A DNA stretch of 64,000 nucleotides from Chloroflexota bacterium (GTDB lineage Bacteria; Chloroflexota; UBA11872; UBA12225; JAJDUF01). Numbering within the stretch: the first letter of the stretch is position 1; every line of letters starts with the position of its first letter. Under the pieces are notes generated by a model that saw only the letters and a list, made by a program, of their open reading frames with translations, did not search any database and was not told the DNA's origin. This document shows, piece after piece, positions 3,111 to 32,321 of this stretch. Made by a program: the position numbers and the translations under genes. The stretch spans positions 4,081,031 through 4,145,030 of the forward strand of contig OZ250185.1 in the NCBI GenBank assembly GCA_965238265.1, written 5' to 3'.

Positions 3111-4457
3111 TTGCTTAGATACCTTGAGGACCGTCGCCGGCTGCTGGCGATTGTACTGACCCTCGCGGTCGCAGCGTACATCGGCTGGAAGATCAGCCAG
3201 TCCGCCGACCAAGCCCTGCAATTTGCCTTCAACGGTCTGGCCGTCGGAGCCATATACGCCCTGCTGGCGATGGGCTTCACCCTCGTCTATAGCACCGTTT
3301 GGTTCTTCGATCTGTATTACGGCGCGGCCGCTGCGCTCGGCGCCTACGGTGTCTTCTACCTGCGGTCTCAAGAGTCCATCGGGCGATACGATGTCAACAA
3401 CCTGTACGTCAATATCGTATTTGCCGCGGTGACCGCCGGAGTAGTCGCCTGGGCCTTCCATGTGAGCTTCGCCGCCCGCCTCCGGCCCCGCTTCAACCCG
3501 ACCGCGCTGCGTAGTATCGGCGGCCTCCTGGCCGCCGGCGCCGGAGCCTACACCGGGCTTGTCCTCGCCTATCCGGACAAACTCAACGTCATGCTCAGTC
3601 CGGCGATTGGCCTGGCGGTCGCGCTGGCGGTGGGCTGGGCGCTCTATCGAGGCTATCGGCGCCTAGCGGCCGGGGCCGGCCGCGTGCCGTTTCTCGCCGT
3701 GGCTACGGTCGTGGCGGCCGCGCTGGGAGCATACTGTGGCCTCGCCGTGGCCAACGCCCCGGGGTCCAGCCTCTACTTGAGTTGGGGCGTGTCGTGCCTG
3801 CTGGCGGGGGTCGTCGGCCTGGCCCTCTACCGGGGGCTGTACATGCAGATGCGCGCACGGGCCAGGTCCCCGCTGGTCATGCTCGTCGCTTCCCTCGGTA
3901 TCCTGCTGGCTATCACCGCCTTCATCGTCATCGTCTTCCAAAGCGCGCCCCGTCCCCTGCCCGAGGCCTTCGGCAGCACCCCCTGGACCATTGGCGGGGC
4001 CAATATCAAGGGGTTCAACGTCTTCACCATCGGCGTCGCGCTCATCGGCTTCTTGGGCCTGCTGCTGCTCCTCAAGAAGACCTCCTTCGGTAAGGCGGTG
4101 CGGGCCATCGGTGACGACGAAGAGGTGTCGAAAGTGGTGGGAATAAACACCACCGTCGTCATCGCCACCGTGTTCTTCATCGGCGCAGTCTACGCCGCGC
4201 TGGCCGGTCTGCTGAGTGGCCACGATACCGCCATCCAGCCCCGGATGGGCCTGTTGCTCCTGTTGAAGGGCTGGATCGCTTCCGTCGTCGGCGGCATCGG
4301 GAACCTCTACGGCGCCATCGTTGGCGGGTTTGTCTTGGGCCTGATCGAGCAGTTCGGTATCTGGGACGTGGCCGGTGAATGGAAGAACGCCATCTCCTTC
4401 ATCCTCTTGATCCTCTTCCTATCCTTCTGGCCCCAGGGCCTGTTACCGAGGGAATAG
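3111..4457 (+). CDS. branched-chain amino acid ABC transporter permease (LivH-like)
   Basis: 448-aa polytopic membrane ORF with a TTG start after a GGGGGG SD. The N-terminus (NGLAVGAIYALLAMGFTLVY) and C-terminus are LivH-type, with an inserted hydrophobic region. Sits in the operon with the SBP, a second permease and two ATPases. Confidence 0.8.
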   Translation: MLRYLEDRRRLLAIVLTLAVAAYIGWKISQSADQALQFAFNGLAVGAIYALLAMGFTLVYSTVWFFDLYYGAAAALGAYGVFYLRSQESIGRYDVNNLYVNIVFAAVTAGVVAWAFHVSFAARLRPRFNPTALRSIGGLLAAGAGAYTGLVLAYPDKLNVMLSPAIGLAVALAVGWALYRGYRRLAAGAGRVPFLAVATVVAAALGAYCGLAVANAPGSSLYLSWGVSCLLAGVVGLALYRGLYMQMRARARSPLVMLVASLGILLAITAFIVIVFQSAPRPLPEAFGSTPWTIGGANIKGFNVFTIGVALIGFLGLLLLLKKTSFGKAVRAIGDDEEVSKVVGINTTVVIATVFFIGAVYAALAGLLSGHDTAIQPRMGLLLLLKGWIASVVGGIGNLYGAIVGGFVLGLIEQFGIWDVAGEWKNAISFILLILFLSFWPQGLLPRE

Positions 4458-4461
4458 ACCG

Positions 4462-5517
4462 ATGCTGATGGATTCACAGGTCTTCAGGGACGTGGGCAGA
4501 CTGGCGAGCAATCCCCAGGAGCTTTGGCGGCATGCCAAGGGCAACTTAGAGCTGTGGGCAAACCTGCTCGTTATCACCTGGGCAGTGGTGTTCATGCTCT
4601 GGCAAGGCACCGGATTTGCCATCGCCCTCGGCACCGTCTTCGCTATCTGGGCGATATTGGCAATCAGTCTGAACCTGGTGCTGGGCTTCACCGGCCTGCT
4701 GTCGGTGGGACATATCGGCTTCTTCGGGATCGGCGCCTACGCGATGGCCGTGCTCACCTCGGACCCCGCCTACGAACAGCTGCGCTCGGAAGCCATTCCC
4801 CCCTTGGCCTGGCCTTTCTTTGCGGCGCTGCCGGTCAGCATAGTCTTAGCCGGCGTGGTGGCCTTTGCGGTGGGCATCGCGTTCAATCGGTTCAGAGACG
4901 ATATTTATGTCCTCGTCTCCTTTGGATTCGCCGTCATCGCCTTCAACGTCTTCTTGAATTGGCGCAGCGTGACCAGGGGAGCGTTCGGCATTCACGAGAT
5001 CGCTAGGCCCGAGATCGGCGGCTGGGTGTTCGACGGCGCCTTGGAGTTCATGCTCCTGGCCCTCGTATTCCTCGCCATTGTTGTCCTGATCGCCCGGTTC
5101 ATCGTGACCTCCTCCTTCGGACGGGTGCTGACTGCCATCCGCGAGGACGAGCAGGCCATCGAGGTCTTCGGCTACCGGGCCTCCCACTACAAACTCGCTA
5201 TCTGGGTCATCTCGGCCATGATGGCGGGCCTCGCCGGCGGCCTGTTCAGTAGCTGGGCCAGCTTCATAGACCCCAACTCCTTCATCCTGCTGGAGTCGAT
5301 CCTCTTGGTATCCATCGTGATCCTCGGAGGACTGGCCACCATCTGGGGGTCCCTGCTTGGCGCGATGGCCTTCGTGCTACTCGAAGAGGGCATGCGCTTT
5401 CTGACCTTCCTGCCGACCGAGTTCATCGGCCAAGCCCGCCAGATCGTCCTCGGTATTCTCCTGGTGCTGCTGATGATGTACCGGCCGCAGGGCCTAGTTG
5501 GGAGATACAAGCTGTGA
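4462..5517 (+). CDS. branched-chain amino acid ABC transporter permease (LivM-like)
   Basis: 351-aa polytopic ORF with LNLVLGFTGLLSVGHIGFFGIGAY, typical of LivM. Its 4-nt overlap with the next ATPase gene indicates an operon. Confidence 0.85.
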   Translation: MLMDSQVFRDVGRLASNPQELWRHAKGNLELWANLLVITWAVVFMLWQGTGFAIALGTVFAIWAILAISLNLVLGFTGLLSVGHIGFFGIGAYAMAVLTSDPAYEQLRSEAIPPLAWPFFAALPVSIVLAGVVAFAVGIAFNRFRDDIYVLVSFGFAVIAFNVFLNWRSVTRGAFGIHEIARPEIGGWVFDGALEFMLLALVFLAIVVLIARFIVTSSFGRVLTAIREDEQAIEVFGYRASHYKLAIWVISAMMAGLAGGLFSSWASFIDPNSFILLESILLVSIVILGGLATIWGSLLGAMAFVLLEEGMRFLTFLPTEFIGQARQIVLGILLVLLMMYRPQGLVGRYKL

Positions 5518-6275
5518 GCGCTGCCCAAGCCGAATCCCGGGGGGCTTATGCCCTGGAGACGGAGGCGATCTCGAAGCACTTCGGCACCGTTCGGGCCGTG
5601 GACCGGCTCTCCATCTCCGTTCCTCGCAAGGGAATGACCAGCATCGTCGGTCCCAACGGCTCCGGGAAGTCCACCCTCGTGAACCTGTTGAGCGGGACAT
5701 TGCCCCTCGACGGAGGGATGGTAATTATAGACGGCGTCGGCCTCAAGGTCGTACACGCCCACGAGACTCCGGCACATGGCATCACCAGAACCTTTCAGGA
5801 GGTCAGGCTCTTCGATCAGATGAGCGTGTGGGACAACATCATGGTGGCCTTGACCGACCGGCGTGTCTTCCCCGCACTGCTGGAACGGGCAAAACCCAGC
5901 CAGAGAGAGCAGGCCCAGAGCATTCTGGAGAACGTTGGGCTGTGGGAGAAGCGGCGTGACCTGGCCCTGAATCTGTCCTATGGCCAGCGGAAACTGCTGG
6001 AGATCGGCCGCGCCATGGCGTTGGAGGTCAACACGTACCTGTTCGACGAGCCGTTCGCCGGCCTCTTTCCCCAGATGTTGGAGCGGGTCAAAGACATCAT
6101 GAAAGATATGCGGGACCAGGGCCGCACCATCATCTTCATCTCCCACAACATGGACATCGTGCGCGAGCTGTCGGATTACATATTCGTCCTGGACAGCGGG
6201 AGCCTGCTCGCCGAGGGAGAAGTGGACGAGGTGCTGAGTAGAGCAGAGGTGATAGCGGCCTACCTGGGCGACTAG
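5514..6275 (+). CDS. ABC transporter ATP-binding protein (LivG-like)
   Basis: Walker A GPNGSGKST, signature LSYGQRKLLEIGRA, Walker B YLFDEPFAG and a C-terminal LivG-type tail. Confidence 0.9.
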   Translation: MSAAQAESRGAYALETEAISKHFGTVRAVDRLSISVPRKGMTSIVGPNGSGKSTLVNLLSGTLPLDGGMVIIDGVGLKVVHAHETPAHGITRTFQEVRLFDQMSVWDNIMVALTDRRVFPALLERAKPSQREQAQSILENVGLWEKRRDLALNLSYGQRKLLEIGRAMALEVNTYLFDEPFAGLFPQMLERVKDIMKDMRDQGRTIIFISHNMDIVRELSDYIFVLDSGSLLAEGEVDEVLSRAEVIAAYLGD

Positions 6276-6346
6276 GCTCCGTTGACGTTGCCTGGTTATT
6301 GTCGGCTTTGCCCGGTCGTTCTCGCAGTCGCGGCGGTGATGGATAG

Positions 6347-7150
6347 ATGAACACTCCGGAAGAGACCACCAAAGCACAGAGCGCTGGCGCGCGCGCTGGC
6401 ATTGCTTACGGGAACGGGCCGTCCACCGACGGGATGATCCTGGAGCTAATCAATATATCCGTGCATTACGGGGCCGTAGTAGCCCTGGATGAGGTATCCC
6501 TGGGACTTCAGAAGGGTGAGGTGGTGGCGGTGATGGGCCCCAACGGGGCCGGCAAATCCACCGTCCTCAGAGCCATCATGGGGCTGGCACCCGTTGTCGC
6601 CGGGGAGGTCTACTGGCACCAACAGCGGCTCGCAGCGGCCACCCACGAGATCGTGAAGGAGGGTATCTCCTTCGTCCCTCAAGGCCGGCGTGTGTTTACC
6701 CACCTCACCATCGAAGAGAACTTGGAGATGGGCTGCCTGTACCTGAACGATAGGGCAGAAAAAGAGCGCCGCCTGGATGCAGTCATGGAGCTTTTCCCCA
6801 TCCTGCATCAGAAGCGTCGCGATTTGGCCAGCCAGATGTCCGGGGGGCAGCAGCAGATGTTGGCCCTAGGCCGTGGGCTGATGGCCGGTCCGGAGGCGCT
6901 CCTGCTCGACGAACCCACCCTGGGCCTCGCGCCCATAGTGGTCAAAGAGGTATTTCAGAAGGTCTCCGAGATCAACGAGCGGCTCAGGACCACCATCTTC
7001 GTCGTCGAGCACAACATCAAGGGCGTTCTGGACATCGTGCATCGCGCCTACGTCCTGGACAAGGGCCGCGTCGTACACGACGGCACGCCCCAATCGGTCC
7101 GGGAGACCGACATCCTGACCCAAGTCTTCCTGGGCAAGGTCAATCGCTAG
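6347..7150 (+). CDS. ABC transporter ATP-binding protein (LivF-like)
   Basis: Walker A GPNGAGKST, signature MSGGQQQMLALGR, Walker B LLLDEPTLGLAP. The true start may be the internal Met at 6434 (MILELINISVHYG). Confidence 0.9.
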   Translation: MNTPEETTKAQSAGARAGIAYGNGPSTDGMILELINISVHYGAVVALDEVSLGLQKGEVVAVMGPNGAGKSTVLRAIMGLAPVVAGEVYWHQQRLAAATHEIVKEGISFVPQGRRVFTHLTIEENLEMGCLYLNDRAEKERRLDAVMELFPILHQKRRDLASQMSGGQQQMLALGRGLMAGPEALLLDEPTLGLAPIVVKEVFQKVSEINERLRTTIFVVEHNIKGVLDIVHRAYVLDKGRVVHDGTPQSVRETDILTQVFLGKVNR

Positions 7151-7509
7151 GCCAGCAGCGCCAGCAGCGCTTTGCCCGCAGCGTCGGCCGGTGAGCCACC
7201 CGGCGCCGTCGTGGCGCTGACGGTGCATATCCACCGGCCGTCGGCGCCCGCGAGCGTGACCGGCCCGTAGCGATGGAGCGCTGCCAGGAGGTCATCGGGA
7301 CGGGGCAGCCAGCACAGGCCCAGCACGTGCCGCCGTTCGATCACCGCGCCGTTGTGGACTTCGACTCCGCCATCCTGCTCTGGGCCGTCAGCCAGCACGA
7401 TCCAGTAGATACCCAGCCGATCCATACAGCGGTCACCACGGCGCGGCCGCCATGGTAGCCCGGCTACCTTGAGGGCGCGGCCCAGTTCCCCGTCAATCGC
7501 TTGGCTCAT
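7147..7509 (-). CDS. hypothetical protein
   Basis: 120-aa ORF convergent with livF, with overlapping stops. No recognisable motif. Codon composition looks host-like. Confidence 0.35.
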   Translation of the reverse strand: MSQAIDGELGRALKVAGLPWRPRRGDRCMDRLGIYWIVLADGPEQDGGVEVHNGAVIERRHVLGLCWLPRPDDLLAALHRYGPVTLAGADGRWICTVSATTAPGGSPADAAGKALLALLA

Positions 7510-7576
7510 GCTCGACTACCGTTCCGCTCCCTCGCGCTTCCATCCCCGGCCGGCTGCCCTTCGCTAGGCTAGAGTG

Positions 7577-7801
7577 CTACTTGACCGGTACCTTGCCGCG
7601 GCCCTTGCACTTGGGGCAGACGCCTTCGACGTGATGAAAGCCGCTGGGTTCCGTGGGGTCGGGCCAATGCTCGTTGACCTCGCCGGTGCCCTGACAACGA
7701 TTGCACGCCATCTCCGTACGAAAGACCCGTGATATGACGAACGAGACCACGAGCAACAGGGCAACAATGATCACGAGGGTCGGCAGAAAACTGAGATCCA
7801 A
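7577..7801 (-). CDS. small membrane-anchored protein with a DnaJ-type zinc-finger (2x CxxCxGxG)
   Basis: 74 aa with a TTG start. It has an N-terminal TM helix (LPTLVIIVALLLVVSFVI) followed by CNRCQGTG and CPKCKGRG, the CxxCxGxG repeats of DnaJ/BSD2-type zinc fingers. Confidence 0.6.
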   Translation of the reverse strand: MDLSFLPTLVIIVALLLVVSFVISRVFRTEMACNRCQGTGEVNEHWPDPTEPSGFHHVEGVCPKCKGRGKVPVK

Positions 7802-7996
7802 CTTCTCGCCCCTTGGCCGCTCGCCACGCCGGCGGCGGCGAGTCTCGGCCCGATTGTAACGCTGCGAGACCCAACAGCGCTACAGACAGTGATCTTGTGA
7901 TGCACGCTCTTGACAGATATTCACTGCTACCTTAAAGTATAGCAGGTCTTACTTAACAATCTTGGGGGCAGCGGTCCCGCGAAATGAGGAGGGGAT

Positions 7997-8638
7997 ATGA
8001 GTACGGAACGGATGCAGGTGCTAGAGCTGGTCCGCGATGGCAAGGTCTCGGCAGAAGATGGGATGCGCCTCCTAGAGGCGCTCGGCGAGCCGCGGGCGGC
8101 CGAGGAGCAGCCGGCACACGAGGGAACCGTTGCCAACGATCCCTGGGACAGCATTGACACATCTCCCTCCGAGGAGGCGCCGAGAGAGGCCAAGCAGACG
8201 GGTGTCAGGACTGTCACGAGAGCGTCAGCAAGGATAGAGCAAGCGGCCAAACAGCAGGCTACCTCCCTCAGCCTATCATACACCGGGCTAACGCACCTGC
8301 CGCCGGAGATTGGCCAGCTGACACACCTGGAGGAGCTGGATGCCAGCTTCACCGGGCTGACCAAGCTGCCACCGGAGATCGGGCAGCTCACTAACTTGCG
8401 GCGACTGGATGCCAGCTTCACCGGTTTGAGCGAGCTGCCACCGGAAATTGGCCGGCTGAAACATCTGGAGGAGTTAGCGGTCCACCACACCGGACTGACT
8501 GAGCTACCACCGGAGATCGGGCAGCTCACCAGCCTGCAGCGGCTAGATGCCAGCTTTACTGGGCTGCGCGAGCTGCCGCCAGAGCTTGACCAGCTTCCCG
8601 ACCTGGAGCTGGATATCCGCAACACTGGGATCGGCTAA
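7997..8638 (+). CDS. leucine-rich repeat (LRR) protein with a short N-terminal SHOCT-like helix
   Basis: Five consecutive 23-residue repeats of the form LxxLDASFTGLxxLPPEIGQLTxL. The N-terminus MQVLELVRDGKVSAEDGMRLLEAL resembles the SHOCT-like helical motif. Confidence 0.85.
   Translation: MSTERMQVLELVRDGKVSAEDGMRLLEALGEPRAAEEQPAHEGTVANDPWDSIDTSPSEEAPREAKQTGVRTVTRASARIEQAAKQQATSLSLSYTGLTHLPPEIGQLTHLEELDASFTGLTKLPPEIGQLTNLRRLDASFTGLSELPPEIGRLKHLEELAVHHTGLTELPPEIGQLTSLQRLDASFTGLRELPPELDQLPDLELDIRNTGIG
8267..8630 (+). repeat. 69-bp coding tandem repeats (LRR units) inside the LRR gene
   Basis: The DNA unit ctgccgccggagattggccagctgac...gatgccagcttcaccgggctg recurs about 5 times in register with the 23-aa LRR. 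Confidence 0.8.
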
Positions 8639-8678
8639 CCCACGCTGACAGGGGTAGGTTTTTCGGCGGGAGGCAGGT

Positions 8679-8772
8679 TGGACCTCACCCCCGTCCCCTT
8701 CCCTCCAGGGCAGGGGAGTCATCGAGGCGCCCGGCAGCTCCTTCCCTTGAGGGAGGGGGTTGGAGGTAGGTG
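8679..8772. repeat. GC-rich palindromic intergenic repeat, family D (composite)
   Basis: ttggacctcacccccgtccccttccctccagggcaggggagtcatcgaggcg...cttcccttgagggagggggttggaggtaggtgc. Near-identical modules occur at 32851..32956 and 45865..45925, and D-like cores at 16717, 20201, 47057 and 53500. Confidence 0.85.
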
Positions 8773-8929
8773 CATTCATCCAAACGGTCGGTGACGGCGA
8801 CTGCCGCCGCTGCCCGGCCGTCACTATACTAAGGGACTACAGCGCGACTGGCCGACGCGGCCCCATGCTTGCGCCGGCTGTTGTCCTTCCAATCACAGCC
8901 ATCCGTCATACTCGGAAGGGAGCCACGCG

Positions 8930-11900
8930 ATGTCCTCGGAATTCGTCCACCTCCACGTCCACTCCGAATACTCCATCCTCGACGGCCTCGCCCGCATCAA
9001 CACCTTGATCGAGCGCACGCGCGAGCTGGGTATGTCGGCGCTCGCGCTCACCGATCATGGCGCGCTGCACGGTGTCGTTGACTTCTATACCGCGGCGCAG
9101 GAGGCCGGCATTCAGCCGATCATCGGCTGCGAAGCCTACGTCGCGCCGCGCCGGATGGACCAGCGCGAGCCGAAAATTGACGACAAGAACTATCACCTCA
9201 CCTTGCTCGCCCAGGATGAAACCGGCTATCGCAACCTGCTCACGCTCTCCTCTCGCGCCCATTTGGACGGCTTCTACTACAAGCCGCGCATTGATCGAGA
9301 CTTGCTCTCGCAGCACCACCACGGGCTGATCTGCCTCTCGGGGTGCCAGTCCGGCGAGGTAGCACGCCTGCTCCTCAATGGTCAGGAGGAACAGGCGCGG
9401 TCGGTAGCGGCGTGGTACCGCGATCTGCTCGGGCCAGAGCGCTACTTCATCGAGCTACAGGATCAGGGCCTCGAGGGGCAAGCCGAACTCAACCGCCAGC
9501 TCGTCACACTGGCGCGTGAGCTGGGCCTGGAAGTGGTCGCCACGAACGATCTGCACTACGTCCGGCCGGAGGAGTCGCGGGCGCACGACATCCTGCTGTG
9601 CGTGCAGACCGGCTCGACCGTCAACGATGAGAAGCGCATGCGGATGGCGACGCCGAATTTCTACCTGCGCTCGCCGGCAGAGATGACCGCCTTGTTTGGC
9701 GAGCTACCGCAGGCGCTACGCAACACCGTGGCTATCGCCGAGCGCTGCCGGCTCACGCTGGAGTTTGATCGCATTCTGCTGCCCCAATTCGACATTCCCG
9801 CCGGCCACACCCCCGATAGCTATCTCCGGCAGCTCTGTGAGGAAGGGTTGGCAACCCGCTACGAGACAGTGACCGAGGCGCATCGCCGGCGGCTCGACTA
9901 CGAGCTGGACGTGATCGCCAAGACGGGCTACGCGCTCTACTTCCTGATCGTTGCGGATTTCGTCAGCTATGCCCGGTCGCGCGGCATCTTGGCCGACCCG
10001 CGGGGATCGGTGGCCGGCAGCATCGTCATCTACTGCCTGGGCATCTCCAACATTGACCCGCTCAGGTACAACATCATGTTCGAGCGGTTCCTGCACGCCG
10101 AGCGCCTGGGCATGCCCGACATTGACATGGATTTCGCCGACGACCGGCGCAGCGAGGTCATCCAATACGTGACCGAGAAGTACGGTCACGATCACGTCGC
10201 GCAAGTCATCACCTTCGGCACGATGGCCGCGCGTGCTGCCGTCCGCGACGTGGGCCGTGTCTTGGGGATGAGCTATGGCGAGGTGGACCGGGTAGCCAAG
10301 GCGATCCCGTTCGGTACGGACTTGGCCGCGGCGCGCAACGTGACCGACGTGCAGAAACTCGTGGCCGAGAATCCGCAAGTCAAAGAGCTGGTCGAACTGG
10401 CCGAGGCGTTGGAAGGCACGCCGCGCAACGCCTCCACGCACGCCGCGGCCGTCGTCATCTCCGCCGATCCCTTGATCGAGCACGTGCCGTTGCAGCGAGC
10501 GACGAAAGATAACAAGGAAGGGAGCCTGAGCAGCATTACCCAGTGGTCTTTCGGGATCATCGAAAAGGTTGGCTTGCTGAAGATGGACTTCCTCGGCCTG
10601 ACCAACCTCACCATCCTCGACCGCGCCGTGCAGTTCGTGCGCGAGCACCGGGGCGAGGAGCTTGATCTCAAAGCGCTGCCGATGGACTACGCCGACGAAC
10701 GGGCAAAGCGGACCTATGACATGCTGGCCCAAGGCCAGACGACGGCCGTGTTCCAGCTGGAGTCCGGCGGCATGCGGCGGTGCCTCAAGCAGCTGCGGCC
10801 CAACCGGATTACCGACCTGATCGCCATTGTGGCCCTCTATCGGCCGGGGCCGATGGAGAGCATCCCCGATTTCGTGGCCGCGAAGAACGGCACTCAGCCG
10901 ATTGCCTACCTCCATCCCGACCTGGAGCCACTGCTGGAGGAGACCTACGGGATCATCGTCTACCAGGATCAAGTGCTCCAGATTGCCCGCAAGATTGCCG
11001 GGTTCTCGTGGGGCGAGGCCGACGTGCTACGCAAAGCCATGGGCAAGAAGATCGCCGCGCTCATGGCCGAGCAGCAGGGTCAGTTCATTGACCGGGCGGT
11101 GCAGCGCGGCTACGACAAGACATTTGCCGAGACACTGTGGCAGCTGATCGAGCCGTTCGCCGGCTATGGGTTCCCCAAGGGGCACGCCGCCTACTATGCG
11201 GTGGTGGCCTATCAGACCGCCTACTTGAAGGCCAACTACCCGGTGGAATACCTGGCGGCGGTGTTGACGGCAGCATCCGGTGACGCGACGAAAGTCGGCG
11301 AGGCCGCGGCCGAGTGCCGGCGCTTGGACGTATCGCTGCTCCCGCCGAGCGTGAACCACAGCGGGTTGGCGTTCCGGATAGCTGACGCTCCGGGGGGCAC
11401 CCATGGGGCGGCGATCCGTTTCGGGCTGGCGGCGATCAAGAATCTCGGCGGCGCTGCTATCCGCAACCTCGTCCAGGCCCGCCAGCAAGATGGTCCGTTC
11501 TCGGACCTCGCCGACCTGTGCCGGCGGGTGGACTTGCGGCAGCTCAATCGCCGAGCACTCGAAAGCATGATTAAAGCCGGCGCACTCGACGATCTCGGTG
11601 AGCGGGCTGCACTCTTGGAGGGTCTGAACAGTGCGTTGGGCTTGGCCCAGACCGAGCAACGCGCCCGGCAGGCCGGACAGCTCTCGCTGCTCGACCAGTT
11701 TGCCGATGAGTCGGACTCTGCGGCAGCCGGTATGGGCTTTGCGTTGCCGGAGGCTGCGCCGGCCGAACGCAAGCAGCGGCTCGGCTGGGAGAAGGAGCTG
11801 CTCGGTCTCTACGTCTCCGAGCATCCGCTGGCGAGCATCGCCCAGAGCCTCGAAGCGGCCAGCACCCATCAGCTCGCTGATCTGAGCGAAGAGCTGGCCG

Positions 11901-12769
11901 GCCAGACGGTGCGGATCGGCGGAGCGGTGGCGTCGGTACGCATGATTCCGACGCGCAAGGGCGACATCATGGCGGTGGTCCAGGTGGAAGACCTCGCGAG
12001 CGGTATCGAGGTCGTCGTGTTCCCGCGCACCTTCGACGAAACGCGCGATCTGTGGCAAGAAGACAATGTGGTGCTGGTCTACGGCCGCGTGGACGTGCGC
12101 GCCGAACAGGTGCAGATCATCTGCGAGCGGGCAGAGCTGTTCGAGGGGAGTGAGGACGCAGCACCGCCCGGCGAACAGCAAAGTCAGCTGGCCCATGCCG
12201 TGACTGCCGGCGAGGCGGCGGCCGTCGAGCTGGCTGCTGAAGACGTGCCGAGCACCTCTACCGCAGCGGTCGCCACGCCGGGGGGCCAGTCGCCGGATGG
12301 GACGCCGGCCTGGTTCACGGGCGCGGACCAGGCGGAACCGGCACCACAGGAGGAGCCAGCCCGCCCGCGGCCCGGCGAGGACGCTGGCGAACCGGAGCAG
12401 CGCCAGCCGCCGGCTACTCAGCCTAGCCCCGGCACGAACGGGCACAATGGGGCCGTCCATACCCTGGCGCCGCAGCGGCTCGACATCGTGCTACGCCGCA
12501 CCGCGAACGATGCGGACGACGTGCATCGGCTGGACGAGCTAGGCACCTTGCTCAAGCGACACCCCGGCCTGGACCGCGTGCGGCTAACCATCGCGATGAA
12601 CACGGCACGGGTGGCCTTGGCGCTGCCCCACGAGGTGGACGCGAATCCGCAGATCGTGGACGCAGTGAGTCGGCTGCTCGGCGCACATGGGCAGGTGCAG
12701 ATTCACCCGGACATTGAGACTGGCGCAGGGGTGGTAACGCCCGCCCCGGAGCCGGCCGCTGCCGGATAG
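8930..12769 (+). CDS. dnaE: DNA polymerase III alpha subunit
   Basis: 1279 aa. The N-terminal PHP domain (FVHLHVHSEYSILDG) is followed by polymerase core motifs (YRPGPM, GFPKGHAAYYA), HhH, an OB fold, then a low-complexity P/E/A/Q linker and a C-terminal domain. Confidence 0.95.
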   Translation: MSSEFVHLHVHSEYSILDGLARINTLIERTRELGMSALALTDHGALHGVVDFYTAAQEAGIQPIIGCEAYVAPRRMDQREPKIDDKNYHLTLLAQDETGYRNLLTLSSRAHLDGFYYKPRIDRDLLSQHHHGLICLSGCQSGEVARLLLNGQEEQARSVAAWYRDLLGPERYFIELQDQGLEGQAELNRQLVTLARELGLEVVATNDLHYVRPEESRAHDILLCVQTGSTVNDEKRMRMATPNFYLRSPAEMTALFGELPQALRNTVAIAERCRLTLEFDRILLPQFDIPAGHTPDSYLRQLCEEGLATRYETVTEAHRRRLDYELDVIAKTGYALYFLIVADFVSYARSRGILADPRGSVAGSIVIYCLGISNIDPLRYNIMFERFLHAERLGMPDIDMDFADDRRSEVIQYVTEKYGHDHVAQVITFGTMAARAAVRDVGRVLGMSYGEVDRVAKAIPFGTDLAAARNVTDVQKLVAENPQVKELVELAEALEGTPRNASTHAAAVVISADPLIEHVPLQRATKDNKEGSLSSITQWSFGIIEKVGLLKMDFLGLTNLTILDRAVQFVREHRGEELDLKALPMDYADERAKRTYDMLAQGQTTAVFQLESGGMRRCLKQLRPNRITDLIAIVALYRPGPMESIPDFVAAKNGTQPIAYLHPDLEPLLEETYGIIVYQDQVLQIARKIAGFSWGEADVLRKAMGKKIAALMAEQQGQFIDRAVQRGYDKTFAETLWQLIEPFAGYGFPKGHAAYYAVVAYQTAYLKANYPVEYLAAVLTAASGDATKVGEAAAECRRLDVSLLPPSVNHSGLAFRIADAPGGTHGAAIRFGLAAIKNLGGAAIRNLVQARQQDGPFSDLADLCRRVDLRQLNRRALESMIKAGALDDLGERAALLEGLNSALGLAQTEQRARQAGQLSLLDQFADESDSAAAGMGFALPEAAPAERKQRLGWEKELLGLYVSEHPLASIAQSLEAASTHQLADLSEELAGQTVRIGGAVASVRMIPTRKGDIMAVVQVEDLASGIEVVVFPRTFDETRDLWQEDNVVLVYGRVDVRAEQVQIICERAELFEGSEDAAPPGEQQSQLAHAVTAGEAAAVELAAEDVPSTSTAAVATPGGQSPDGTPAWFTGADQAEPAPQEEPARPRPGEDAGEPEQRQPPATQPSPGTNGHNGAVHTLAPQRLDIVLRRTANDADDVHRLDELGTLLKRHPGLDRVRLTIAMNTARVALALPHEVDANPQIVDAVSRLLGAHGQVQIHPDIETGAGVVTPAPEPAAAG

Positions 12770-12799
12770 CAAGCGCACGGTCGCCGCATACTGGCCGCT

Positions 12800-12834
12800 G
12801 TCACTGTTACTCCCGCTTTCGCGGGAATCTGGGC
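12800..12834. repeat. hairpin repeat, family A (tcccgc-ttt-cgcggga core)
   Basis: gtcactgttactcccgctttcgcgggaatctggg. The same core is present at 20114, 34159, 50349, 52251, 53576 and 55231, with a gattgcggc...gccgcaat variant at 18844, 53620 and 55285. Confidence 0.8.
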
Positions 12835-12916
12835 CTGTATCCTGTGGCATCTGGCTTGCGTAGGCAGGTATCGAACCGAGGTTTCCGCCCCAACTGAGGA
12901 GCGCTAAGGAGGCCAT

Positions 12917-14044
12917 ATGCTGAGATATTATCGACGAACATTGTTGGCGATGCTTTCCCAACTCCAGAAAATTCGTCATGACCCAGAGGGGAGTGCCGTG
13001 GAGGTCTTGCGGTTACAATTGAAACTCCTGGAAAAGATCAAATATGTTGAATCTCGGAGCCGAGCAGCACGTCAAGACGGAAACCTAACTCTCAGAGACG
13101 AGTATCGCGATCTAATTCTGCTGTTGAAGAGTATTGGTGACAGCATTGCCCTATTCTATCTTTCCATCTGGGATGTCAAGCCAATCTCAATGCATCATTC
13201 ACCGGGATTCATCTTGGGCAAAAGCGGTCTGCGTGCCGAACTAGCCGAACTTCGTCGTATCTACAAGATGGGTGGCATCGCTATCCTGAATGATATTACA
13301 AACAATTTGAGATATGGGGACATCACTATCCTTTCTCCTATTAATGCTATTATTGAGGTCAAGACAAACAAAGAGAGATCACGTCGAGCGACTCGCCAAC
13401 GCAGGGCATTGAAGAAACTCACAGATTATCTAGTTTCTGATGATGAAGGGGCACCTTTCGGTCGCTTTGAGAATCTCATACGGATTGGAGTTCATCAGAA
13501 GGAGCATTACTTATGGCGAGAATTAAACGCTCTGATACGAGAAGCGCAGGAGTACGGGCATGCTGGTTCTTTAGTTGAGAATGGTGTCTTCTATCATGTT
13601 TCTCGGCGTGGCGTTTCACCAAAACTTATCATCGACGACATAGGACGTCATGTGTCTTCACCTATATTGAATATGTGTAACGAGAATAAGTTTGATAATC
13701 TCTATTATCACCCCTTTACATCATCTATACACGAACCTCGCGCTGTTTTGGATCTCTTGTGCGGTGAATTGTTTATTTTTGTTGCTGTTGATAAGGAGTT
13801 TATTTCCGAGAGACTTTTCCAAATGGGTCTCACGGCACAGTTCCTTGAGGATGAGAATTTCCCAGTCAGGATCACTGCAGCTGATAGTGCCGCTGATGAT
13901 TCTGCCAAAATGGAGGTTGGGAAGCATCTATTCAATCGTGTATTTCGTGAGTTCCTAAGTATGGATTGGCTCTTATGTGAGTTAGTCCGTCGCTACACGA
14001 GATTCGCAAGAGAAGAAGCTGAGGTTAGTGGCGTATTGGACTAA
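12917..14044 (+). CDS. AT-rich orphan protein with a candidate PD-(D/E)xK nuclease motif (D135 ... E147-V-K149); function unknown
   Basis: 375-aa ORF with a strong SD (ctaaggaggccatATG). Composition is clearly foreign: the line 13321..13380 has 21/60 G+C against 38/60 for 12661..12720 in dnaE. The motif is RYGDITILSPINAIIEVKT, followed by a basic helix RSRRATRQRRALKKL. Confidence 0.75.
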   Translation: MLRYYRRTLLAMLSQLQKIRHDPEGSAVEVLRLQLKLLEKIKYVESRSRAARQDGNLTLRDEYRDLILLLKSIGDSIALFYLSIWDVKPISMHHSPGFILGKSGLRAELAELRRIYKMGGIAILNDITNNLRYGDITILSPINAIIEVKTNKERSRRATRQRRALKKLTDYLVSDDEGAPFGRFENLIRIGVHQKEHYLWRELNALIREAQEYGHAGSLVENGVFYHVSRRGVSPKLIIDDIGRHVSSPILNMCNENKFDNLYYHPFTSSIHEPRAVLDLLCGELFIFVAVDKEFISERLFQMGLTAQFLEDENFPVRITAADSAADDSAKMEVGKHLFNRVFREFLSMDWLLCELVRRYTRFAREEAEVSGVLD

Positions 14045-14128
14045 GCTTGCCATGCCACCCTGCGCGGCGTATCCTCGGAAGAGGCAGCCCCCGCGACAAC
14101 GAGGTGCCGGGGGCGAGGGGATGGTCCG

Positions 14129-15607
14129 ATGATTGGCCGCACGGCGCGTCGCCTGCTGTATGTGCTGCTCCTGCTGATCGGGCTGGGGAGCGGCGTCGCT
14201 GCGCCCGGCCTCGCCGCTATCGCCGCGGCGGCAGAGACGGCCAGCCCGGCGGCGCAGGCCCAACGGGTGCTCTACACCGCCGAGATTGACGGCGCCATCA
14301 CGCCGATCACCGCCCAGTACCTCAGCCGCGCCATCAGCCGCGCCGAGCGGGACCAGGCAGCGGGGCTGCTCATCCGGCTCGACACGCCCGGTGGTCTGGA
14401 GAGCGCCATGCGGGACATCGCCCAGCGACTGCTCGGCGCCCAAGTCCCGACGATTGTCTACGTGGCCCCGGCCGGCGCGCGTGCCGCGTCCGCCGGCCTG
14501 TTTGTGACGCTCGCCGCCCACGTCGCAGCGATGGCGCCCGGCACCAACATCGGCGCCGCCCATCCGGTGGCGCTTGGTCAGGACGGGGCGGCTGCCGAAA
14601 CGACACCGCTGACCAAGGCCACCGAGGACGCTGCGGCGCTGGTGCGCTCGCTGGCCACTACCTATGGGCGTAACGCCATTTGGGCCGAGCAGGCGGTACG
14701 CGAGAGCGTAGCGATTACCGCTGCCGAAGCACTCGACCGGACCGTGATTGATTTCGTTGCGACCGATGTCACTGACCTGCTGCAACAGGTAGAGGGGAAA
14801 ACGGTGCCGGTGGCTGGGCAGCCGGTCACACTGCAACTGGCCGGCACGCCCACGCAAGCCATCGCGATGACGTGGCTGGAGCAGCTCCTCGCCATCATCG
14901 CCAATCCCAATATCGCGCTGATCTTGATGAGCCTCGGTACGCTGGGGCTGTTCGCCGAAATGCAGCATCCCGGCACGGTGCTCCCCGGCGTGCTGGGAGG
15001 CGGCGCGCTGATCCTCGGACTGGTGGCCCTCGGCAACCTCCCCTTCAACTGGGCCGGCCTGGCGCTGCTGGCGCTCGCTGCGGTGCTGCTGATTGCCGAG
15101 GTCTTCATCGCCGGTTTCGGCGCCTTTGGCGTTGGCTCTATCATCGCCTTCGTCTTGGGCGCCATCCTGCTCTTCTTCCCGCTCACCCCACCGTCGCCAA
15201 TCCAGATCACGGTATCGGTCCATCCCGGCGTCATCGCCAGCATGACGGCCACCATGGGCGCCTTTGTCTTCATCGTCGTGCGCGGAGTTTTGCGGGCACG
15301 CAACGCACCGATAGGCACGGGCAAAGAGCGGCTCGTCGGCGCGACTGGAACGGCGCTCACGCCGCTGCATGCCGAGCGCATTGGGCAGGTGCGCGCGGCG
15401 AGCGACACCTGGAGCGCGACGCTCGAACCGCTCTACCGCGAGTCGTCCGTCTCGGTCGGGGAGACCGTCGAGGTCATGGAGGTCCGCGGCGTGACACTGC
15501 TCGTGCGGCCCAGCCTCGTCACCGCGCCGCACCCCCGGCCCCCGCGCCACAAGGAGAGCGGGAGCGTCCGCCGGAGCCGACCATTTGACAGCGTAGGGCA
15601 AACCTGA
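14129..15607 (+). CDS. NfeD-family membrane-bound ClpP-class serine protease
   Basis: Signal/TM N-terminus, a ClpP-like domain (LIRLDTPGGLESAMRDI ... APAGARAASAGLFV), central TM helices and a C-terminal NfeD OB domain (GQVRAASDTWSA...VEVMEVRGVTLLV). It lies immediately upstream of an SPFH gene. Confidence 0.9.
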   Translation: MIGRTARRLLYVLLLLIGLGSGVAAPGLAAIAAAAETASPAAQAQRVLYTAEIDGAITPITAQYLSRAISRAERDQAAGLLIRLDTPGGLESAMRDIAQRLLGAQVPTIVYVAPAGARAASAGLFVTLAAHVAAMAPGTNIGAAHPVALGQDGAAAETTPLTKATEDAAALVRSLATTYGRNAIWAEQAVRESVAITAAEALDRTVIDFVATDVTDLLQQVEGKTVPVAGQPVTLQLAGTPTQAIAMTWLEQLLAIIANPNIALILMSLGTLGLFAEMQHPGTVLPGVLGGGALILGLVALGNLPFNWAGLALLALAAVLLIAEVFIAGFGAFGVGSIIAFVLGAILLFFPLTPPSPIQITVSVHPGVIASMTATMGAFVFIVVRGVLRARNAPIGTGKERLVGATGTALTPLHAERIGQVRAASDTWSATLEPLYRESSVSVGETVEVMEVRGVTLLVRPSLVTAPHPRPPRHKESGSVRRSRPFDSVGQT

Positions 15608-15642: not shown

Positions 15643-16614
15643 ATGGAACCCAATCTGATCGGCATAGGCGTGGCTGCCGTGGTCGTTATCCTCATATTTC
15701 TGTGGGCCGCCCGGATTGTGCCGGAGTATCGCCGCCTCGTCGTGTTCCGGCTGGGGCGCTCTATCGGCGCCCGCGGCCCCGGCTTGGTGCTACTCATTCC
15801 TTTCGTTGATCGCCCGGTAGGCGTGGACCTGCGCGAGCGCTATTTTGACGTGCCACCGCAGTCGGCTATCAGCCAGGATAACGCCTCGCTCTCCATTGAC
15901 TTCATCGTCTACATGCGGGTCGTGGACCCGGTTAGCAGCGTGGTGGAGGTGGAAGACTTCACGGGGGCGGCGCGCGGCATTGCGATCACCACGATCCGCG
16001 CTATCGTCGGTGACATGATGCTCGACGCGGTGCTCTCGCAGCGCGATCAGATCAATGCGGGCATGCGGACGAAGCTGGATGAAGTGACCAACCGTTGGGG
16101 GGTCAAGATCAATGCGGTCGAAATCCGCGAGATTCTGCCCCCGCAGGATATTCAGGAGGCGATGACGCGCCAGATGTCGGCCGAGCGCACCCGTCGGGCC
16201 GCGGTGACCGAGGCCGAGGGACAGCGCGAGGCGACCATCACCGTCGCCGAGGGCAATAAGCAGGCCGCCATTCTCAACGCCGAGGGCACCCAGCAAGCAA
16301 CGATCCTCGAGGCCGAGGGCCGCCGCCAAGAGGCCATCCTGACGGCCCAAGGCTTCGCCGACGCTTTGCAGCGGATTTACGCCGTGGCCCAGCAGGTCGA
16401 TCCGAAGACGATGAGCCTGCAATATCTGGACGCGCTCAAGGCCATTGGCGCCAGTCCGGCGACGAAGTTCATCCTTCCGATGGAGCTAACCACACTGATG
16501 CATACCTTCAGCGACTTTGCCGCCCGCGCGGCCGACGGCACGGATGGCGCCGCGGCGCAGCCAACCGGCGGACAACAGCCCGTCACCATCGTCCCCGACG
16601 ACAGAGACGAGTGA
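15643..16614 (+). CDS. SPFH/band-7 (stomatin/slipin-like) protein
   Basis: N-terminal TM, RIVPEYRRLVVFRLGR, and an EA-rich coiled coil (AEGQREATITVAEGNKQAAILNAEG...). This is the classic nfeD-stomatin operon arrangement. Confidence 0.9.
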   Translation: MEPNLIGIGVAAVVVILIFLWAARIVPEYRRLVVFRLGRSIGARGPGLVLLIPFVDRPVGVDLRERYFDVPPQSAISQDNASLSIDFIVYMRVVDPVSSVVEVEDFTGAARGIAITTIRAIVGDMMLDAVLSQRDQINAGMRTKLDEVTNRWGVKINAVEIREILPPQDIQEAMTRQMSAERTRRAAVTEAEGQREATITVAEGNKQAAILNAEGTQQATILEAEGRRQEAILTAQGFADALQRIYAVAQQVDPKTMSLQYLDALKAIGASPATKFILPMELTTLMHTFSDFAARAADGTDGAAAQPTGGQQPVTIVPDDRDE

Positions 16615-30972: not shown

Positions 30973-32208
30973 ATGAACACGCCGGATGATTTGACCTTCA
31001 GGGGGTTGGAGGCAAAGCGAAAGGGCCTGGTCGACGATGGTGAGTTCGGTACGTTTTCGTCTGCCCTCGGACTTCGCCCTCGGCGTTGCACCAGTTGGCT
31101 GGAGCGTGCCGAGCGGGAGATGGAGAAAGACCGTCCTGACCACGATGCTGCGTTCATCTTCTACTGGATCGCGTTCAACGCCGCTTATGAAGAAAGCCGG
31201 ACGGGGGCATGCCTGGGGGAAGAAGATAAGAAAAGAAGAGATGTTCTTTTCGACGAAATCATCGCGCTAGACCGCTACGATAAGGTCAGCAATGCAATCC
31301 CAATGAAGTGCAAGGACCCCATCATGGAATTCCTGGACAACAAGTACGTCTTCCAACTCTTCTGGGCGAGGTACAAAAACTGGGAAGAAACTTTGGAAAG
31401 AGAACGAGATGAAGTGGATAGAGCACCACTACTATGGCGTGCAGAGGAACATACCAAAAAGACTCTAAGTATACTATTCGACCGTCTGTACGTGCTGCGT
31501 AATCAGCTTATCCACGGGGGTGCGACTTGGAAGGGTTCGATGAACCGTGAACAGGTCATTTCCGGAGCGCGGACCACGGCCTCCCTGGTCACGCTGTTTA
31601 CCGAACTGATGATGGACAATCCGGACACTGAGCGCGCTCTGCGTTGTCTCAGTTGGCGCGAGCGTGCCGATCAAGAGATGGCGAGGCAAGAACCTGACTA
31701 CGATGCCGCGTTTATTTTCTACTGGATTGCGTTCAACGCCGCCTACGCATGGGGCCGGGGGGAAAGGCGATCTCACCGACCATCACCCCAAGTAGCGGCC
31801 GCTCGCGACGGGTATTTCGGCAAGATCATCAAGCTAGATGACCGCGGGAAGGTCTATGACGTGATCCACGGCAACGAGTACGTCTCCCAACTGCTCAGGA
31901 GTGACCACCAAGGATTGTCAAGGTACAGATACCGGCAATCTCGGTCGCGAGGCGGCCATAGCGTACACGAATCACCCAATGATCAGTATACCAGGCGCAT
32001 TCTATCCCGACTACGCCGACTATTCGACTACCTATATAGTCGGCGCAATCAGCTTATTCATGGTAGCGCGACTTGGAATGACCTGGAAAATCGCGTCCGG
32101 AGCGAGGCCGATGCGCGGATTCTGTCTTCCCTAGTTCCGCTGTTTATTGACTTGATGATGGACAAACCGATGGCTGACTGGGGTGATCCACCCTACCCCG
32201 CCGCGTAG
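30973..32208 (+). CDS. tandem double-HEPN-like protein (two Rx4H motifs in one chain); predicted single-chain RNase, family unassigned
   Basis: 411 aa made of two internal repeats (about residues 38-218 and 222-400). Each has ...ERA..EM....D(H/Y)DAAFIFYWIAFNAAY and then (L/R)RNQLIHG(G/S)ATW: R176-H181 at 31498..31515 and R358-H363 at 32044..32061. The gene is AT-richer than its flanks (27-32 G+C per 60 nt in 31201..31380). Confidence 0.75.
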   Translation: MNTPDDLTFRGLEAKRKGLVDDGEFGTFSSALGLRPRRCTSWLERAEREMEKDRPDHDAAFIFYWIAFNAAYEESRTGACLGEEDKKRRDVLFDEIIALDRYDKVSNAIPMKCKDPIMEFLDNKYVFQLFWARYKNWEETLERERDEVDRAPLLWRAEEHTKKTLSILFDRLYVLRNQLIHGGATWKGSMNREQVISGARTTASLVTLFTELMMDNPDTERALRCLSWRERADQEMARQEPDYDAAFIFYWIAFNAAYAWGRGERRSHRPSPQVAAARDGYFGKIIKLDDRGKVYDVIHGNEYVSQLLRSDHQGLSRYRYRQSRSRGGHSVHESPNDQYTRRILSRLRRLFDYLYSRRNQLIHGSATWNDLENRVRSEADARILSSLVPLFIDLMMDKPMADWGDPPYPAA

Positions 32209-32278
32209 CCACATAGCAAGCGCCCGTGAGTAGCGGGCGGCGACGCAGGGAGCGTGATAGTTGCCACCGGGGCCGTGC

Positions 32279-32321
32279 AGTATAGTTGTCCCATGCTGCT
32301 GCGCGGAGAGCGTGTCGTGCT
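32279..32321 (+). repeat. direct repeat, right copy (functional 5' end of the GNAT gene)
   Basis: See 30904..30946. A further partial copy, gggagcgtgatagttgccacc, lies at 32248..32268 (compare gggagagagtatagttgcccc at 30897..30917). Confidence 0.85.
32281..32293 (+). promoter_or_regulatory. putative -10 box placed for a leaderless GNAT transcript
   Basis: TATAGT at 32281..32286. The A of the ATG at 32293 is the 7th nt downstream and there is no SD, a geometry typical of leaderless mRNAs. Confidence 0.3.

Follow-up and report, generated by a model that had tools for sequence, protein, structure and literature searches.

An AT-rich gene between dnaE and nfeD of a Chloroflexota bacterium encodes a candidate stand-alone nuclease with an Hjc-like PD-(D/E)xK core

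The stretch of DNA analyzed here is a section of 64 kb from the contig OZ250185.1 of a Chloroflexota bacterium (termed the window, to whose first nucleotide all coordinates refer). Between the genes dnaE and nfeD it harbors an open reading frame (ORF) on the forward strand, 12917..14044, denoted gene X, which starts with ATG and encodes a protein of 375 amino acids. With a G+C content (GC) of 0.44 and a G+C content at third codon positions (GC3) of 0.43 the gene differs strongly from its surroundings. Its product is a candidate Hjc-like member of the nuclease families of the PD-(D/E)xK type, and as judged from the sequence it is probably such a nuclease. We moderately favor the view that gene X is a horizontally acquired, single-gene nuclease of general defense; if classical solitary restriction is counted in, a defensive role of one kind or the other appears likely.

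Results and Discussion

Conservation within the gene X family

An exhaustive phmmer search with the gene X protein, with the hits clustered at 50% identity, revealed a family of at least 699 clusters at E ≤ 1e-3, or 439 if the limit is set to E ≤ 1e-10. Almost all members comprise 370–430 residues and share the same architecture. A word-indexed search returned 20 relatives, all of them without a name. Among 147 diverse members, D126, D135, E147, Q161, E221, G104 and P266 are conserved in 100% and K149, E108, R189, T128 and G97 in 99% of the sequences. The initial annotation had placed a nuclease motif on D135, E147 and K149; these residues are found at precisely these positions and are, together with E108, invariant also in A1, A2, A3 and A9. 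The codons of the putative core residues are located on the forward strand at 13238-13240 (E108), 13292-13294 (D126), 13319-13321 (D135), 13355-13357 (E147), 13361-13363 (K149) and 13397-13399 (Q161).

The segment G97-x3-G101-K102-S-G104 precedes the helix that carries E108. A P-loop reading of this segment was rejected, as its spacing corresponds to GxxxGK and not to GxxxxGK[ST]; a 'KG...E' segment presumably stands in a like position in Hjc. A match of the native protein to PtsI/Enzyme I (E 0.03–0.07) was judged spurious, and a full-length profile built from 137 sequences yielded only coiled-coil noise against the sequences of the PDB.

A 459-residue hypothetical protein encoded on the Streptomyces violaceoruber plasmid pSV2 (L048, 7674-9053) has only the core in common with the gene X protein, with 38% identity over query residues 70-153. 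Its gene adjoins a TIGR02391-family gene, a DEAD/DEAH helicase and several insertion sequence elements, and the protein may be a remote family member with a variant architecture.

Overall architecture and predicted structure

The AlphaFold2 model of the full-length protein is confident (pLDDT 85.6, pTM 0.86). The N-terminal helical domain (residues 1-87, 12917..13177, +) consists of three long helices (H6-21, H27-53 and H57-81 according to DSSP) and contains the conserved residues Q34, E45, G74, D75 and A78. No convincing transmembrane segment is present in the protein, the maximum Kyte-Doolittle value over 19 residues (KD19) being 1.78 at residues 66-84, which form a helix with conserved charged residues within the helical bundle. 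Both the coiled N-terminus and the absence of a transmembrane segment had been anticipated by the initial annotation. Despite the conserved E45 and D75, a Pfam scan with the consensus of this domain gave generic coiled-coil noise only.

The predicted nuclease core (residues 97-175, 13205..13441, +) can be described as α(E108)-β-β(G134-D135)-β(E147-V-K149)-α(R157, R160, Q161). In the model, helix H105-117 with E108 is followed by strand E121-124, by strand E136-139 immediately after G134-D135, by strand E144-146, which leads into E147-V-K149, and by helix H156-174. Judged by the order of elements alone, the modeled core displays the canonical α-β-β-β-α arrangement of the PD-(D/E)xK fold. The C-terminal α/β domain (residues 200-366, 13514..14014, +) is defined by DSSP at high pLDDT and matches no family. 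It harbors the conserved residues N204, E221, G223, Y226, N255, P266, D292, R341, E345 and W351. For the C-terminal ~175 residues, the best Pfam match of the consensus has an E value of 0.057, and no fold match was obtained.

If the core is modeled alone, pLDDT and pTM drop from the values of the full-length model to 65 and 0.38, respectively, indicating that the core depends structurally on its flanking domains. With this low-confidence model the top Foldseek match in the PDB is the VRR-NUC structure 4qbn (E 1.2, TM 0.51, root mean square deviation 3.5 Å for 74 columns), and the same list contains five chains of A. fulgidus Hjc (E 1.3–5.2, 22–26% identity). None of these matches is significant and the list is only suggestive. 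As a whole, the modeled 375-residue architecture is without a solved relative in the PDB and BFVD as searched by Foldseek.

Relationship of the core to Hjc

The core was scanned against profile libraries as residues ~92-215, i.e. with the coiled-coil N-terminus removed, in 72 segments including the family consensus. The core consensus matches Pfam Hjc with E 9.4e-5 and 22.7 bits, at a gathering score of 21.1, and two further consensus variants, one of them full-length, again gave Hjc as the top match (21.1 and 20.8 bits). Whole-protein scans of 102 members produced sub-threshold matches only, several PD-(D/E)xK families among them. Recurrent matches of the core segments are those to Hjc (5 of the 72 at E ≤ 5, the consensus counted), PDDEXK_15, NERD and NOV_C (three each) as well as PDDEXK_9 and UPF0102 (two each); further segments matched HSDR_N, RE_EcoO109I, Cas4 or NucS_C, and PADLOC REase_II appeared as an isolated weak match in some members. 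Nearly all weak matches across the members fall on PD-(D/E)xK families, ten in number. A phmmer search of the PDB with the core consensus gave noise only (a ParM fusion and GABP-alpha).

In the profile alignment to PDB entry 1hh1 (chain residues 41-81, E 0.72), 'GDItv...liEvKs' is aligned with 'PDIIAL...LIEMKS', whereby D135, E147 and K149 fall on D42, E55 and K57 of Hjc. The catalytic center of Hjc is formed by E12 together with D42, E55 and K57 (PMC6555300). In the gene X protein E108 precedes D135 by 27 residues and resides in the helix before it; in Hjc, E12 stands 30 residues before the aspartate. This helix position and spacing suggest that E108 is the equivalent of E12.

The PD-(D/E)xK core on D135, E147 and K149 which the initial annotation had proposed is supported by the invariance of the residues, by their secondary-structure context and by the profile alignment to Hjc. 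At the level of motif, order of elements and borderline profile similarity, the gene X protein belongs by its sequence to the PD-(D/E)xK superfamily; it falls outside the Hjc family proper, Shedu, and restriction-modification or toxin-antitoxin modules. That the D...ExK pattern is a chance resemblance, found for example in a structural or regulatory coiled-coil protein that is no nuclease, appears very improbable. Such a resemblance would be compatible with non-significant fold searches and with the missing family match of the native sequence, but all motif residues are invariant or nearly so over the 147 diverse sequences, strands and helices are correctly placed in the model, the weak matches concentrate on ten PD-(D/E)xK families instead of random ones, and the consensus reaches the gathering score of Hjc.

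Stand-alone status and horizontal mobility

All-versus-all clustering of the ORFs within ±6 kb of the gene in 29 loci revealed no conserved neighbor other than the family itself, and neither a conserved antitoxin-like partner nor a conserved methyltransferase gene was found among these loci. In the Pfam-annotated neighborhood of gene X itself, no integrase, transposase or methyltransferase was called within ±10 kb. Searches for direct or inverted repeats on its flanks, for a tRNA and for an Rfam element were negative. A transposon- or integron-like insertion, which would bring terminal repeats, a tRNA or an integrase, was rejected on these grounds. The description of gene X as a single-gene unit without a mobility gene or methyltransferase nearby, given in the initial annotation, therefore holds, also with respect to a conserved partner.

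Species-representative genomes were scanned with a 19-sequence alignment, the 102-sequence alignment being too diverse for this purpose. Homologs were retrieved from Chloroflexota, Alpha-, Beta- and Gammaproteobacteria, Planctomycetota, Verrucomicrobiota, Bacteroidota, Actinomycetota and Gemmatimonadota; with a further homolog on a Firmicutes-like contig the family is present in at least eight phyla. A few homologs reside on plasmids. In 27 of 28 loci the gene is poorer in GC than its surroundings, often by 10–26 points. This composition, the patchy phyletic spread and the absence from the sister lineage described below argue for a foreign origin of gene X, as initially proposed.

The mode of transfer is best seen in a subfamily of 380–398 residues (L023, L024, L033, L036, L027, L135, L136 and L137). 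Its members are 82–96% identical between Pantoea and Achromobacter and 70–80% identical to the copies of Comamonas and Roseateles (68–80% if L137 is included). DNA similarity between these loci is confined to 1.25–1.56 kb, comprising the gene and ~90–240 nt on each side, and the GC of the gene is 0.34–0.41 in hosts of 0.54–0.62. The minimal shared cassette and the high identity between orders point to very recent shuttling across order boundaries. The insertion sites differ between lineages (dnaE-nfeD, the P2 hotspot, the P4 primase-att region and others), and no common target sequence or flanking repeat was found.

Genomic contexts and association with defense

The nearest three genes on each side were inspected in 23 genome loci. 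They comprise housekeeping genes, tyrosine integrases, rve and ISL3 transposases and a portal gene, as well as a range of defense proteins, namely GajA/GajB (Gabija), PDC-M49A/B, MzaA, bGSDM, DRT reverse transcriptases and AriA-like ATPases. Individual loci contain a TIR protein (L016), PDC-M49A (L028) or an SMC-like ATPase (L031), and the homolog P0008 is flanked by a large serine recombinase on one side and by an SF1-helicase-DUF2726 protein and Fic on the other.

Six IMG/VR contigs carry homologs. In L135 the order is terL (4431-6263), portal (6280-7293), an ORF of 109 codons, the gene X homolog (8001-9140) and gpA on the opposite strand, so that the homolog is situated between the portal gene gpQ and gpA of a P2-like prophage. 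In P2 this cos-proximal gpQ-gpA interval is the hotspot that harbors old and tin (PMC9122126). A P4-alpha-like primase lies next to the homolog in L136, Pantoea L024 and Klebsiella L047; the P4 primase-att region is a minor defense hotspot of P4, from whose hotspots six out of eight randomly picked unannotated loci protect against phages (PMC13586616). An identity of gene X with the systems named in that study was rejected, as their descriptions do not fit. The family is recurrently placed in defense islands and hotspots, and the defense role suggested by the initial annotation gains plausibility from the P2 and P4 hotspot cargo and from the TIR, Gabija, PDC-M49, Mza, bGSDM and DRT neighbors.

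A more specific form of defense would be that of a classical solitary restriction endonuclease, either a modification-dependent enzyme of Type IV or an orphan of Type II with a distant methyltransferase, in which the C-terminal domain reads the DNA. The PD-(D/E)xK core fits this assignment, as do the single weak matches to HSDR_N, RE_EcoO109I and PADLOC REase_II in some members, and the lack of a methyltransferase within ±10 kb and of one conserved at other loci is what Type IV would predict. However, no known modification-reader domain or restriction endonuclease family rises above noise, and the non-catalytic domains are highly conserved across phyla, in contrast to the specificity domains of Type II enzymes, which evolve fast. 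We consider solitary restriction unlikely as the specific assignment; being a sub-case of defense, it overlaps with the general defense nuclease favored here.

The dnaE-nfeD slot

In the window, gene X is preceded by dnaE (8930..12769, +), which encodes the 1279-residue α subunit of DNA polymerase III (Pfam PHP/DNA_pol3_alpha/HHH_6) and is host-like with a GC3 of 0.83. On the right it is followed by nfeD (14129-15607, +; Pfam NfeD1b_N/NfeD_membrane/NfeD, an NfeD1b-type protease) and by a Band_7/SPFH gene (15643-16614, +; Pfam Band_7), both of host-like composition. The position dnaE-X-nfeD is kept in the relatives L004 (X 80% identical) and L005, L012 and L006 (X 77–83%), with DnaE ~90.5% identical (84% over a 423-residue C-terminal fragment on L005) and NfeD 92–96% identical. 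Gene X has become fixed here in three lineages that differ at the species level, and its GC and GC3 in all these relatives amount to 0.46–0.49. Compared to the syntenic orthologs, the ratio of nonsynonymous to synonymous divergence (dN/dS) of gene X is 0.20–0.28; this purifying selection implies that the gene is functional. Its synonymous divergence (dS) of 0.42–0.71 is two to three times that of the flanks (0.18–0.25).

The next lineage out, represented by L131 (a 4.23-Mb chromosome; DnaE 85% and NfeD 89% identical), L132 and L133, lacks gene X while the flanking synteny dnaE ... nfeD-band7-CCA-MR_MLE is kept. In L131 the slot (3757-7897) is occupied by a three-gene ABC-2 operon (ABC_tran and two ABC2_membrane genes) with a host-like GC3 of 0.76–0.79. 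No ortholog of this operon exists in the window, where only paralogous ABC ATPases are found at 5574-7102 (29–31% identity). The occupation of the same position by either the ABC-2 operon or gene X characterizes the slot as a replaceable cargo site beside an essential gene. More distant nfeD genes are not adjacent to dnaE, and a search for an empty site in JGI metagenomes with NfeD returned relatives at ≤47% identity, none of them with dnaE adjacent; the relatives that proved informative were obtained through a protein database.

Alignments with L131 and L132 show that the homology between X-bearing and X-lacking genomes stops at the dnaE stop codon (12769) and resumes at TTGCCA (14047), with the right junction at 14045..14046. 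These limits define a clade-specific segment of 1277 nt, 12770-14046. TTGCCA forms the -35-like box of a promoter-like site ahead of nfeD (TTGCCA-17-TATCCT, 14047-14075), which is kept in both groups. The segment begins with a leader of 147 nt and 61% GC (12770..12916, +), which has no counterpart in L131 and L132 and is kept among the X-bearing relatives. Most parsimoniously, as far as can be read from these sequences, the ~4.2-kb ABC-2 operon gave way to this segment in an ancestor shared by the X-bearing lineages. The initial picture of a recently acquired gene wedged between two others has to be revised accordingly in two respects: the site is shared by three species-level lineages under purifying selection and without drift toward the GC of the host, and gene X would have arrived by replacing the operon rather than by entering an empty spacer. 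The synteny proposed as a check of acquisition likewise gives a divided answer, gene X being present with similarly low GC in the three lineages and absent from the sister, where the ABC-2 operon takes its place.

On the 6x-coverage long-read contig L006, both the ortholog of gene X (9033-10247; 255 residues and a remnant) and dnaE (5034-8895; 1191 and 93 residues) are split by indels, probably as a result of assembly errors rather than as pseudogenes. As dnaE is split on the same contig, the 255-residue copy was left uninterpreted.

The proximity to dnaE raises the question of a host enzyme of DNA repair or recombination, i.e. a bacterial analogue of archaeal Hjc that cuts branched DNA and is linked to replication via dnaE. 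Hjc is indeed the closest detectable family, with the catalytic triad aligned; gene X follows dnaE immediately in the same orientation, a terminator between them is not predicted, and it is under purifying selection. Nevertheless, the adjacency to dnaE is limited to this clade, with the ABC-2 operon in the sister lineage and no dnaE-nfeD linkage in farther relatives. No repair or replication gene is a conserved neighbor among the 29 loci, the distribution is patchy and dominated by horizontal transfer with foreign composition in 27 of 28 loci, and the architecture is 2.7 times the size of Hjc with two extra domains. A host repair enzyme is therefore very unlikely.

Stationary AT-richness of gene X

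Among all windows of 1128 nt within the 64 kb, the minimum GC of 0.444 is reached at the one starting at 12915 (mean 0.646, standard deviation 0.036), whereas the second-lowest value elsewhere is 0.539. The GC3 of gene X is likewise far below the 0.81–0.84 of dnaE, nfeD and band7. At 13321-13380, 21 out of 60 nucleotides are G or C, as compared to 38–46 out of 60 in the last full 60-nt lines of dnaE, and the switch is completed within ~100 nt on either side; the counts given in the initial annotation (21/60 versus 38/60 at the end of dnaE) and its ~100-nt switches are exact. The low-GC block coincides with the coding sequence itself, since the spacers of 147 nt upstream and 84 nt downstream have 61% and 73% GC, respectively.

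In order to follow the direction of change, synonymous third-position substitutions were polarized among three lineages (window, L004 and L012) and compared with those in dnaE and nfeD. Per ancestral site, 42/131 changes from A or T to G or C (W→S) and 44/110 in the reverse direction (S→W) have occurred in gene X. The implied equilibrium GC3 of 0.44 equals the current value of 0.46, while dnaE and nfeD imply 0.73–0.77. The W→S rates of gene X and the flanks are alike (p 0.73), but S→W fixations are four times more common in gene X (odds ratio 5.7, p 3e-14). At this balance gene X is not ameliorating, and an amelioration in progress is rejected. As no drift toward the GC of the host is seen, the composition does not simply reflect a fresh insertion, and the compositional anomaly does not date the transfer. 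Three causes of the AT-richness may be considered: selection may keep gene X AT-rich, the gene may escape whatever keeps the GC3 of the host at 0.83, be it selection (for instance on codons) or biased gene conversion, or recombination may exchange its alleles for those of an external AT-rich pool.

Some of these features might also be expected of a selfish or addictive nuclease gene, similar to a homing endonuclease or acting as a toxin that penalizes its loss, which spreads for its own benefit. The bare single gene moves without mobility genes and shares with its relatives little DNA besides itself (~90–240 nt per side), in the window it is precisely bounded by the dnaE stop codon and the promoter-like site of nfeD, its foreign composition persists, and its elevated dS at the same site in related species could reflect lateral exchange of alleles. 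Such an element is nonetheless rather improbable. Homing endonucleases are as a rule short and occur with introns, inteins or phage genes; among the 29 loci no partner that could serve as antitoxin or immunity protein is conserved, and the insertion sites of different lineages are unrelated, with neither a common target sequence nor a flanking repeat. Furthermore, hotspot cargo has turned out mostly defensive in published tests (PMC13586616).

Proposed function

Against the favored reading of gene X as a general defense nuclease stand several observations. The native protein has no match in Pfam (E ≤ 10), NCBIfam, PADLOC or, by phmmer, the PDB, and the Hjc match is reached by the family consensus alone, at about the gathering threshold. 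Foldseek searches with the full model against PDB and BFVD gave a best E of 0.29 and no nuclease among the matches. The association with defense genes derives, as a raw count, from roughly one third of the sampled loci, and many loci, that of the window included, have purely housekeeping neighbors. Finally, no homolog was detected in 50,697 cultured-phage records or, at the DNA level, in E. coli. Of the homology and fold comparison by which the nuclease assignment was to be checked, the profile part thus succeeded at the level of the consensus, while the fold searches did not (no Foldseek match of the full model below E 0.29).

According to the mechanism favored here, the gene X product would be a Mg2+-dependent nuclease with an Hjc-like PD-(D/E)xK active site made up of E108 from the first helix, D135 from the start of the second strand and E147-x-K149 from the third strand, with D126 and Q161 probably assisting catalysis. 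The predicted core of ~80 residues would be packed between the N-terminal three-helix domain and the C-terminal α/β domain of ~170 residues, two domains whose most likely role is the targeting or gating of the nuclease. The gene would move between genomes as a bare cassette of ~1.3 kb and act alone. Its role would most likely be innate defense against phages and mobile genetic elements by cleavage of invading or replicating foreign nucleic acid without a cognate methyltransferase, in a logic comparable to that of Shedu or of restriction enzymes that sense modification or structure. In the Chloroflexota clade described above, gene X would have replaced the ABC-2 operon in an ancestor and would since have been retained by purifying selection.

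A more far-reaching proposal, to be entertained only tentatively, is that gene X founds a widespread, hitherto unrecognized single-gene immune system in which an Hjc-type, junction- or structure-specific core operates under two novel domains without a solved fold relative, and in which the AT-rich coding sequence is actively maintained. AT-richness would then, for example, keep a dangerous nuclease low-expressed or under xenogeneic silencing.

Leader and further features of the window

A Shine-Dalgarno sequence (TAAGGAGG, 12905-12912) lies inside the leader and ends 4 nt ahead of the ATG of gene X, in agreement with the reading frame and the good ribosome-binding site assigned initially. The leader as an RNA element was rejected, as it has no Rfam match, a weak structure and negligible covariation among three sequences. 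An antisense ORF of 131 codons (12584-12979, -), which extends across the leader into dnaE on one side and into gene X on the other, is probably a spurious long ORF of GC-rich DNA.

Just upstream of dnaE, a gene at 7997-8638 (+) encodes a protein of 213 residues that has a SHOCT-like domain at its N-terminus and contains leucine-rich repeats. At the matching position no gene was called in the relatives L004 and L006, and the site looks like a second variable slot beside dnaE. The stretch of second-lowest GC mentioned above (0.539 over 1128 nt at 31037) contains an ORF of 411 codons without a Pfam match (30973-32208, +), which is followed by a GNAT acetyltransferase gene (32254-32838) and may be another foreign or orphan gene.

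Significance and comparison with known systems

If confirmed, gene X would enlarge the defense repertoire by a nuclease system that is compact (~1.1 kb) and consists of a single protein. The gene is unrecognized by Pfam (2025), NCBIfam (2026) and PADLOC, and its presumed regulatory domains and its fold are without a characterized relative. The Hjc-like core may hint at the sensing of branched or structured DNA, such as intermediates of phage replication or recombination, instead of sequence or methylation; if true, this would be a mechanistically interesting way of distinguishing self from non-self. In addition, a foreign gene fixed between essential genes of a 65%-GC genome without amelioration over species-level divergence constitutes a natural experiment, which is relevant to the question of how GC is maintained, by selection or biased gene conversion as opposed to mutation, and to the dating of transfers by composition.

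Unlike restriction-modification systems of Types I–III, gene X has no cognate methyltransferase within ±10 kb or conserved in the 29 loci, and unlike Type II toxin-antitoxin systems it has no conserved small adjacent partner in these loci. With VRR-NUC, NERD, NOV_C, PDDEXK_9/15, UPF0102/YraN, Cas4 and NucS the gene X protein appears to have in common the catalytic motif and a minimal fold, and these families collect sub-threshold matches from several members. All of the matches are below the family thresholds, and none of the families possesses the flanking domains.

Compared to Hjc (PF01870; PDB codes 1HH1 and 2WCW), the motif spacing is the same, with D135, E147 and K149 on D42, E55 and K57, and a conserved glutamate is present in the preceding helix (E108 versus E12, the proposed equivalence). 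In contrast, the gene X protein comprises 375 residues instead of about 125–145 and adds the N-terminal three-helix and the large C-terminal domains, and its native sequence stays below the Pfam threshold (no Pfam family at E ≤ 10). Moreover, gene X occurs in bacteria, moves horizontally and resides in defense hotspots, whereas Hjc is an archaeal, vertically inherited repair enzyme.

The cargo of the P2 gpQ-gpA and P4 hotspots (old, tin, PARIS and others; Rousset 2022; PMC13586616) resembles the family in that homologs of gene X occupy the same positions and form small, swappable low-GC cassettes; the copy in the window differs by being fixed in a housekeeping neighborhood instead of a prophage or satellite. 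Shedu (SduA, DUF4263) is a stand-alone PD-(D/E)xK nuclease of ~400 residues with non-catalytic domains, without a methyltransferase and horizontally transferred in defense islands. The respective models, Pfam DUF4263 and PADLOC SduA, are not matched by the gene X protein (E ≤ 10) and are not among the families listed for the 102 members, and the nuclease is central in gene X instead of C-terminal as in Shedu. Shedu is nevertheless the closest analogue of gene X in its logic.

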